24,013 nucleotides of DNA from Candidatus Pacearchaeota archaeon ex4484_31 (GTDB lineage Archaea; Nanobdellota; Nanobdellia; Pacearchaeales; UBA284), in contig NJDW01000001.1 of assembly GCA_002254805.1 (NCBI GenBank), forward strand, positions 1 through 24,013, in the 5' to 3' direction. Below are positions 14,606 to 16,259 of the stretch, in pieces (position 1 is the first letter of the stretch; each line of letters opens with the position of its first letter). Below the pieces are notes generated by a model that had not been told where the DNA came from, did no database searches, and saw nothing but the letters and a program-made list of their open reading frames with translations. The position numbers were made by a program, and so were the translations under genes.

Positions 14606-14658
14606 ATGATGTTGCAAGGGCAGGTGACTACAATGAAGCATTAAACAGTAAACACTGA
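14606..14658 (+). ncRNA. Candidate box C/D sRNA embedded in the pre-rRNA 5' leader
   Basis: C-like ATGATGT (14606-12), 11-nt guide TGCAAGGGCAG, D'-like GTGA (14624-27), 5-nt spacer, C'-like ATGAAGC (14633-39), 15-nt guide, D box CTGA (14655-58). 53 nt is a typical archaeal sRNA size. The first guide is exactly complementary to tRNA-Ala positions 27-37. Confidence 0.55.
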
Positions 14659-14676
14659 ACAGTAAGACTTTTTCTA

Positions 14677-16141
14677 ATTCCAGTTGATCCTGCTGGAGAG
14701 TGCCGCTATCAGGGTCTGTCAGCCATGCAAGTCACAGGCTTTCCCGCTTATGCGGGAAAGTGCTGGGCGAACTGCTGAGTAACACGTAGCTAATCTACCC
14801 TTAGCTCCCGGATAACCTCGGGAAACTGAGACTAATCCGGGATAGGCGAGGAAACTTGGAAAAGCCCTCGCTGAAAGCCTCTCTGAGGCGGCTAAGGATG
14901 AGGCTGCGGCCTATCAGGTAGTTGTTGGGGTAAAAGCCCAACAAGCCTATGACGGGTAGGGGCCCTGAGAGGGGGAGCCCCCAGAAGGACTCTGAGACAC
15001 TAGTCCTAGCCCTACGGGGTGCAGCAGGCGCGAAGATTTTCCAATGCCCGCAAGGGTGAGAAAGAGACCCTGAGTGCTCACGCTTTGCGTGAGCTTTTCC
15101 CGAGTGTAAAAAGCTCGGGGAATAAGGGCTGGGCAAGACCGGTGCCAGCAGCCGCGGTAATACCGGCGGCCCAAGTGGCACTCACGTTTATTGGGTCTAA
15201 AACATCCGTAGCCGGCCTCGTAAGTCCTATGTTAAATTGTCACGCTTAACGTGACAAACGCATAGGATACTGCGAGGCTAGGGACTGGGAGACGCAGCGG
15301 GTACGGCGAGGGTAACGGTAAAATGTGTTAATCCTCGCCGGACCAACAGGGCGAAGGCGCGCTGCGAGAACAGGTCCGACGGTCAGGGATGAAGGCCAGG
15401 GGCGCAAAAGGGATTAGATACCCCTGTAGTCCTGGCTGTAAACGCTGCCCACTAAACATCGCGATCTCCTCGAGAGGTCGCGGTGCTGAAGCGAAGGCGG
15501 AAGTGGGCTACCTGGGGAGTACGGCCGCAAGACTGAAACTTAAAGGAATTGGCGGGGGAGCATTACAAGGGGTGACGCGTGCGGTTTAATCAGATTCTAC
15601 ACCGTGAACCTCACCAGGACCGACAGCAGGATGAAGGTCAGTCTGAAGGGCTTACCTGACACGCTGAGAGGAGGTACATAGCCGCCGTCAGCCTGTGCCG
15701 TGAGGTGATCTGTTAAATCAGGTAACAGGCGAGACCTGCGTGCCTAGTTGCCACCCGGTAAGGGGGCACTCTAGGCAGACTGCTCCCGCAAGGGAGAGGA
15801 AGGTGCAGGCAACGGTAGGTGGCATGCCCCGAATGCCCTGGGCTACACGCGCGCGGCAATGGCGGCAACAATGGGTTGCGACCCCGAAAGGGGAAGCTAA
15901 TCCCCTAAATGCCGTCCTAGTCCAGATCGAGGCTTGCAACTCAGCCTCGTGACGCTGGAATCCCTAGTAATCGGACGTTAGCAGCGTCCGGTGAATAAGT
16001 CCCTGCTCCCTGCACACACCGCCCGTCAAACCGTCCGAGTTGCGCCTTGGTGAAGCCCTTCGGGGAAGAACCTTGGCGCAGCGAGGAAGGTTAAGTCGAC
16101 ACATGGTATCCGTAGGGGAACCTGCGGATGGATCACCTCCT
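14677..16141 (+). rRNA. rrs: 16S rRNA (archaeal, divergent)
   Basis: Starts ATTCCAGTTGATCCTGCTGGA. Contains GTGCCAGCAGCCGCGGTAA, ATTAGATACCC, AAACTTAAAGGAATTGGCGG and CACACCGCCCGTC. Ends with the anti-SD GGATCACCTCCT. Confidence 0.97.
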
Positions 16142-16173
16142 AAAAAACAAAGAACATAGATGCTAAGAGTGAT

Positions 16174-16259
16174 GGGCCCGTAGTTCAACTGGTAGAACGC
16201 TGCCCTTGCAACATCTGCAAGAAAGGCAGAGGTTCCGTGTTCGAATCACGGCGGGTCCA
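16174..16259 (+). tRNA. tRNA-Ala(UGC) with a 13-nt intron at 37/38 (16211-16223); CCA not encoded
   Basis: Acceptor GGGCCCG/CGGGTCC with the G3:U70 alanine determinant. D arm GTTC/GAAC, anticodon stem CTGCC/GGCAG, anticodon TGC at 16207-09, T arm CCGTG-TTCGAAT-CACGG, discriminator A16259. Confidence 0.93.

Follow-up and report, generated by a model that had tools for sequence, protein, structure and literature searches.

A conserved helix flanking the 16S rRNA in a Candidatus Pacearchaeota operon and its match to the anticodon arm and intron of pre-tRNA-Ala

In bacterial rrn operons, an RNase III stem made of leader and spacer encloses the 16S ribosomal RNA (rRNA), and genes for transfer RNAs (tRNAs) are located in the spacer. 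In Haloferax and other Euryarchaeota, the intron of pre-tRNA-Trp holds a box C/D guide for its own tRNA. The processing stems of archaeal 16S and 23S rRNA are inverted repeats of leader and spacer, as found in Haloferax, Sulfolobus, and others (PMC7038931, PMC8339473). In the model archaea, the 3′ strand of the stem is the spacer upstream of tRNA-Ala, and its bulge-helix-bulge is cut by EndA (PMC7038931, PMC8339473). Stems of leader and spacer that carry bulge-helix-bulge motifs, together with circular intermediates, make up the picture in the literature. The stretch of DNA considered here, called the window, is the 24,013-nt sequence of Candidatus Pacearchaeota archaeon ex4484_31 (contig NJDW01000001.1, positions 1 to 24,013, forward strand), and it contains an archaeal rRNA operon in the order 16S-tRNA-Ala-23S. 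The leader of this operon is complementary over 16 nt to its pre-tRNA-Ala. The element resembles the archaeal processing stems in that a helix between the leader and the 3′ flank of the 16S encloses the 16S, covaries, belongs to a 16S-tRNA-Ala-23S operon, and occurs in a genome that contains EndA. In contrast, its 3′ strand consists of tRNA and intron, and no bulge-helix-bulge was found. It also differs from the bacterial rrn stems, where the spacer tRNAs lie outside the helix, since here the tRNA is one helix strand. The feature is real and conserved, and although 16S processing stems are a known kind of element, this arrangement of one is undescribed. Full-text literature searches found no description of a tRNA or its intron as a processing-stem strand, nor of the invariant leader motif reported below, an absence that is not proof of novelty.

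The leader segment 14608-14623 (GATGTTGCAAGGGCAG) and the downstream segment 16200-16215 (CTGCCCTTGCAACATC) form an inverted repeat of 16 nt with 100% complementarity. The exact reverse complement reported in the initial annotation is borne out by reading of the sequence and by a repeat finder. Its assignment of the downstream segment to tRNA positions 27-37 and the first five intron nucleotides also holds when the tRNA is numbered as position n = 16173+n. No second perfect inverted repeat of 16 nt occurs within 14300-19700. The leader strand and its own downstream region have a duplex energy of -37.4 kcal/mol, compared with a mean of -16.4 and a best value of -28.0 kcal/mol for 200 shuffles (z = -7.8). 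The distance between strand and 16S is 53 nt on the upstream side and 58 nt on the downstream side, and the two strands enclose the mature molecule. The complementarity is conserved in relatives, covaries there, and switches its partner between the spacer and the tRNA. As judged from the comparison of sequences, the leader segment is the 5′ strand of a conserved 16S-flanking processing helix, here named P3. For the window, it is considered likely that the 3′ strand of P3 is supplied by the anticodon arm and intron start of pre-tRNA-Ala, that P3 and the pre-tRNA fold are mutually exclusive, and that an order of maturation is thereby imposed.

The comparison set comprises 40 relatives searched with the operon as query, together with public contigs found by the leader pattern. 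The 14-20 nt that follow the leader motif differ by lineage, yet they are complementary to a segment shortly downstream of the 16S in nearly all loci. The length of P3 across the relatives is 13-20 bp. Its commonest pair is GTATGTAGAAGCAG in the leader with CTGCTTCTACATAC in the spacer, and divergent yet matching pairs of leader and partner occur elsewhere, such as TACAAGAGGCAAG with CTTGTCTCTTGTA and GTATGTAGGAATAC with GTATTCCTACATAC. Most columns of the P3 helix show several Watson-Crick pair types. The leader strand is assigned to a conserved 16S processing helix because its partner covaries by compensatory substitution. The bias of energy-based pairing was removed by a swap control, in which the leader strand was compared with its own downstream region and with the downstream regions of loci that have a leader with at least 5 differences in 14 positions (n = 34 loci with a recognisable tRNA). 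The mean energies were -20.2 kcal/mol for the own partner and -11.5 kcal/mol for foreign ones, and the own partner was better than every divergent locus in 23/34 loci. Alignment of leaders and spacers of relatives, the check proposed in the initial annotation, shows complementarity kept through compensatory change. The structural part of the second model in that annotation, in which the duplex is the 16S processing stem, agrees with the covariation of the leader strand and its 16S-flanking partner across the order.

Two classes of loci are distinguished by the position of the partner. In the spacer class, which has about 35 non-redundant loci, the partner is within the 16S-tRNA spacer. The tRNA class comprises nine species without a spacer partner, and their leader strand pairs with tRNA-Ala positions ~27-37 and the first intron nucleotides. 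Its members are L001 (the window), L005, L007, L008, L009, L010, L020, L120, and G006, with the leader of the last on L155 and its tRNA on L023. The duplex energies of the tRNA class are -8 to -18 kcal/mol with the spacer and -20 to -38 kcal/mol with the tRNA, whereas those of the spacer class are about -19 to -35 kcal/mol with the spacer and -7 to -21 kcal/mol with the tRNA. The two classes separate cleanly by these energies. In the window, the 16S-tRNA spacer has only 32 nt and lacks a P3 partner. A 37/38 intron and the anticodon stem CTGCC are present in 9/9 tRNA-class species, while CTGCC is present in 0/25 spacer-class loci with a readable anticodon arm. The spacer-class loci of the window's own family, which is represented by 24 genomes in the sample, have the anticodon stem CCTCC. 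In the 16S tree, the classes are interspersed within this family and occur in two other families, and at least six changes are needed. The lack of a spacer partner thus coincides repeatedly, in different lineages, with a tRNA arm that fits the leader.

The leader of the window has two differences from the family consensus TTGTAAGGGCAA, and each adds Watson-Crick pairing with the tRNA. A G.U pair becomes G-C opposite G35, and a new pair is formed with C27, which lengthens the helix from 13 to 16 bp. Both changes are shared by L005. L020, which belongs to another family, has a different leader, TATGCA..GGCAG, that fits its own tRNA arm and a different intron start, TA. Two loci form a link between the classes. 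In L120, the partner of a further helix, P1, is the intronic string ACTCAT, which immediately follows the P3 partner. In L015, the partners of P3 and P1 are both in the loop of a T-loop intron of tRNA-Ala. From the tRNA class, L120, and L015 taken together, the 3′ half of the 16S stem is read as recurrently housed in or beside tRNA-Ala introns. The T-loop intron in the tRNA-Ala of L015 (G024; ~3080-3210 of the oriented locus) has ~44 nt and was missed by ARAGORN. L010 / L153, of the tRNA class, has a spacer of 204 nt with a weaker match to the leader strand, GACTGCTT, at -17.8 kcal/mol, and may be an intermediate between the spacer and tRNA classes.

A search with a tRNA-arm pattern for further tRNA-partner species gave no new loci and one chance bacterial match. 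A descent of the spacer partners of family members such as L002, L003, L004, L006, L011, and L107 from an older tRNA-Ala, since decayed or split, was also considered and rejected. Their similarity to tRNA is confined to the paired segment, and the partner flanks and the 200 nt after the present tRNA are no better than shuffles (p = 0.11-1.0).

The same comparisons bear on the explanation that the match is a historical relic. In that case, the leader would be kept for another reason, such as a protein on the invariant motif, the strands would never pair in the cell, and there would be no functional 16S stem. The tRNA match would be an ancestral leftover or a by-product. This is in line with a leader motif and an adjacent strand whose sequence is conserved along with their pairing, with the lack of a bulge-helix-bulge in the 18 loci scanned, and with a local tRNA fold that has about the stability of the stem-paired state and is the first to form. 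However, across the order the strand varies freely but stays paired, which argues that pairing is what is selected. The association of a missing spacer partner with a leader-matching CTGCC stem is perfect across interspersed lineages, and both leader changes of the window extend the helix (13 to 16 bp). A relic is thus judged improbable.

The 5′ strand of P3 is preceded by an invariant leader motif, ATGAGTGCCTTA-loop-TAAGGTATGA. A pattern search of public genome contigs found the exact motif upstream of the 16S in at least 119 Pace/Woesearchaeota contigs, and the public records that have it are labelled Pacearchaeota, Woesearchaeota, or Nanoarchaeota. In the window's family, it is present in 15/24 genomes. 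The motif contains a hairpin, P2, with the stem 14582-14590 / 14599-14607 and the loop 14591-14598. Among 41 aligned loci, the flanks of the P2 stem are invariant and the loop is variable. In most lineages outside the window's family, P1 is formed by the spacer directly 3′ of the P3 partner and the leader directly 5′ of P2, and compensatory change is seen in P1 as well. By this alignment, the leader-spacer element of most relatives is a three-way junction of P1, hairpin P2, and P3. The invariant AUGA ... GAUG flanks of P2 could yield tandem G.A pairs, and they are complementary to the spacer in relatives. The register of the invariant motif does not suit a simple K-turn.

The leader had also been interpreted as a box C/D-shaped element. 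In the first model of the initial annotation, a cis-acting guide small RNA embedded in the leader directs the 2′-O-methylation of the operon's own tRNA-Ala at C31/C32. The strings ATGATGT, GTGA, ATGAAGC, and CTGA are indeed present at roughly the spacing of a C/D small RNA, but the C′ and D boxes are not kept in relatives, as ATGAAGC is not conserved and CTGA (14655-58) has no counterpart. The C to D′ distance is 11 nt in the window versus 18 nt in most relatives. The proposed C box, ATGATGT, is off the C-box consensus RUGAUGA at the last position, and it is a piece of the invariant motif, which also occurs in relatives that pair the leader with the spacer instead of the tRNA. The pairing of leader and tRNA continues through this box, and the N+5 rule would place the target at C31, a stem nucleotide. 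The covariance-model check of the leader gave weak Rfam matches to C/D small nucleolar RNAs, all of them sub-threshold; the snR13 match (23.3 bits, E = 0.049) is far under the Rfam gathering score of 47.

The protein content of the family also contradicts this model. Fibrillarin (PF01269) and Nop5 (PF01798) were found in 0/24 family genomes, several of which are about 90% or more complete and two of which are single-contig; they include the assembly of the window (G000), which is only 59% complete. Among the 40 relatives, both proteins occur in one (1/40), from another family. Methanocaldococcus, Haloferax, Sulfolobus, and Methanosarcina served as positive controls for these searches. Judged by gene content, the lineage appears to be without box C/D guided methylation. 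With these proteins not found, the boxes unconserved, and the Rfam matches sub-threshold, the guide was rejected as scarcely credible. The window still resembles the pre-tRNA-Trp of Haloferax, since in both cases the region of a tRNA intron engages in a further RNA-RNA interaction and the partner is encoded in cis. In contrast, the pre-tRNA-Trp system methylates the tRNA and depends on fibrillarin and Nop5, whereas the searches in the present case gave no C/D proteins and the interaction is with the rRNA leader.

The spacer tRNA is identified as tRNA-Ala by G3:U70 and the anticodon TGC, and ARAGORN with introns allowed agrees and gives a 13-nt intron. By default, ARAGORN miscalls the spacer tRNA as Gln(ttg), and it may be mislabelled in the automated annotation of these genomes. 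It is the sole UGC alanine tRNA detected in the 59%-complete assembly. The splice motif of the intron has a central helix of 4 bp, formed by CUUG (positions 32-35) and CAAG (16218-21), the bulges CA|A and AA|A (3′ bulge at 16222-24), and an outer intron helix of only 1 bp. The motif is called relaxed because of this short outer helix. As modelled, the intron forms a relaxed bulge-helix-bulge/loop motif and belongs to the bulge-helix-bulge introns of tRNAs.

EndA is encoded in 41/41 genomes searched, G000 included (contig C31), with a size of about 170-270 aa in general and roughly 190 aa in G000. This length fits the α4-type DPANN enzymes, which are credited with relaxed specificity (PMC5829648). 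The intron is similar to the pre-tRNA introns cut by EndA (PMC5829648), since it has the 37/38 site, a 4-bp central helix, 3-nt bulges, and an encoded EndA of ~190 aa. In contrast to them, a distant leader segment is complementary to the very nucleotides that make up its splice motif, which gives this motif a competitor from beyond the tRNA.

Another explanation is that the leader, once released as a fragment, works in trans on pre-tRNA-Ala or mature tRNA-Ala, either as an antisense regulator or as a chaperone, and does so independently of 16S excision. The only UGC alanine tRNA could in this way be restrained during high rRNA synthesis, for example. As 11/16 of the paired nucleotides are exonic, the mature tRNA could still pair, and a single Ala-UGC copy is seen in the assembly. 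A TATA-like motif upstream of the spacer tRNA in some relatives also suggests that co-transcription may not be obligatory there. However, in most relatives the homologous strand pairs with a spacer that is not tRNA, which fits a cis structural helix around the 16S. Action in trans is accordingly regarded as very unlikely.

The preferred reading, P3 with its 3′ strand in pre-tRNA-Ala, implies two competing folds. In a constrained cofold of the window, the state with the forced 16-bp helix has -94.9 kcal/mol and the tRNA-folded state has -95.1 kcal/mol. In a shorter context, the difference between the two states is -0.8 kcal/mol. Among eight tRNA-class loci modelled, the difference between the stem and tRNA states is -6 to +6 kcal/mol. 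The stem-folded and tRNA-folded states are thus predicted to be of about equal stability. The forced state has two extra predicted helices, one between CTAC (14628-31) and the tRNA segment GTAG (16192-95), and the other between AGCATT (14637-42) and the spacer segment GATGCT (16159-64).

In the proposed mechanism, the co-transcribed pre-tRNA-Ala would give the 3′ strand of P3 with the 5′ strand of its anticodon stem, its anticodon loop, and the first five intron nucleotides. P3 would join the 5′ and 3′ flanks of the pre-16S rRNA. P3 and the cleavable pre-tRNA fold would exclude each other, because the anticodon stem and the intron splice motif are built from nucleotides that P3 also uses. As the 5′ splice site (37|intron 1) is in the middle of P3, the formed stem would mask it from EndA. 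Splicing by EndA, and probably folding for RNase P/Z, would take place only with the stem absent or resolved. The leader string GATGT could pair with its complement ACATC, the intron loop, and in this way provide a toehold when strands are exchanged. Because the two folds exclude each other, we infer, rather than observe, an order between 16S maturation and tRNA-Ala maturation, as in the functional part of the second model of the initial annotation, where sequestration of the tRNA arm links its splicing to the release of the 16S. A coupling of tRNA splicing to 16S maturation is plausible, since the predicted tRNA-folded and stem-folded states are isoenergetic.

Several findings weigh against this mechanism. 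A geometric scan (3-nt/4-bp/3-nt) of the 16S flanks of 18 loci gave no canonical bulge-helix-bulge, with no consistent site and AT-rich noise only. A predictable bulge-helix-bulge is likewise absent in Nanoarchaeum equitans and Thermoplasma (PMC7038931). The P1 helix, present in most relatives, is absent from the window. There are only nine tRNA-partner species, their leaders are alike, and compensation of the leader with the tRNA or intron is seen in only a few independent cases, namely L001/L005 compared with the consensus, and L020. The cofold check of leader and spacer proposed in the initial annotation has a divided outcome. The forced stem is isoenergetic with the tRNA fold, but in the unconstrained cofold with longer flanks the tRNA stays folded and the leader has other partners, and thermodynamics alone therefore does not choose between the states. 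The local tRNA hairpin needs no more than ~20 nt of transcription to form and may have the kinetic advantage. A more extended reading is that, in a set of Pacearchaeota lineages, the intron and anticodon arm have been co-opted as the 3′ half of the 16S processing signal and act as a two-state switch, in which the leader and the 3′ part of the intron vie for the same nucleotides of the tRNA, with splicing after resolution of the stem and with the intron kept for ribosome biogenesis. This extension is tentative and rather doubtful.

The features of the operon are listed in Table 1.

Table 1. Features of the rRNA operon in the window, with positions, strand, and basis of the assignment.
Feature	Position	Strand	Basis
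TATA-like box TTTAAATA of the rRNA operon promoter	14541..14548	+	Read from the sequence; inferred from position only
Invariant leader motif ATGAGTGCCTTA-loop-TAAGGTATGA	14578..14609	+	Exact-motif search and alignment
P3 5′ strand (16S processing stem)	14608..14623	+	Perfect complement of 16200-16215; homologous strand in relatives with covarying partner
Predicted stem extensions, leader	14628..14642	+	Constrained cofold, prediction only
16S rRNA gene, enclosed by helix P3	14677..16141	+	Rfam RF01959, 1369 bits
tRNA-Ala(UGC)	16174..16259	+	Rfam RF00005; ARAGORN with introns allowed
P3 3′ strand	16200..16215	+	tRNA positions 27-37 (5′ strand of the anticodon stem, loop, anticodon) and intron nt 1-5
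tRNA-Ala intron, 13 nt, canonical 37/38 site	16211..16223	+	ARAGORN, tRNA fold, manual reading
23S rRNA gene	16329..19262	+	Rfam RF02540

The host genome is AT-rich. Its GC content is ~32%, compared with 52-58% for the rRNA genes. The assembly comprises 279 kb, and the genomes of relatives have 0.5-1.3 Mb. Boxes of the TTTATAAA type are found after GAAA at the matching relative place in the rRNA operons of relatives. From the TATA-like box, transcription of the operon probably starts near 14570. The nested 7-bp match 14569-75 / 16257-63 of the initial annotation is present, but its part in the element is not borne out. It was rejected as a helix because it is at or before this probable start and has no counterpart in other tRNA-partner loci. 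An inverted repeat search gave the 23S its own flanking helix (16321-16352 / 19239-19270).

The spacers contain further short motifs. A motif of the TTTAAAAA / TTAAAAAGCTACAG type is located ~25-35 nt upstream of the spacer tRNA in L002, L003, L011, L107, L021, and others, and is not evident in the 32-nt spacer of the window. It may be an internal TATA box, that is, a separate tRNA-23S promoter, or a processing signal. The tRNA-23S spacer (16262-16328 region) contains two ATGATGA strings, at 16267-73 and 16310-16, and a 10-bp hairpin at about 16276-16297. The string ATGAGAC directly ahead of the 23S stem echoes the ATGAGTG motif ahead of the 16S hairpin. GATGAGAC(R)GCATAG is common to relatives in the tRNA-23S spacer and 23S-flank region (16262-16328 and 19263-19280 in the window). 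In many relatives (L004, L006, L007, L008, L010, L012, L015, L021), the short motif TCGACG / CGTCGA is a recurrent feature of leaders, of 16S-tRNA spacers, and of the sequence ahead of the 23S, and it is found in the window at 16304-16309.

The archaeal splicing machinery has two known kinds of substrate, processing stems and tRNA splice motifs, which have so far been treated separately, and here they share nucleotides. The invariant leader hairpin across Pace/Woesearchaeota is an undescribed and readily testable element of rRNA maturation. The partners in the spacer, the T-loop intron, or the anticodon arm suggest that signals of the rRNA operon were re-housed during genome reduction. If the pairing forms in the cell, it would constitute a built-in order or checkpoint between the small-subunit rRNA and the only UGC alanine tRNA, and its hosts would be minimal-genome organisms without the C/D guide machinery. 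If the co-option reading is true, there would be a direct structural link between tRNA splicing and small-subunit rRNA maturation. It would also offer a selective reason for the retention of a tRNA intron, whose persistence is a long-standing question.

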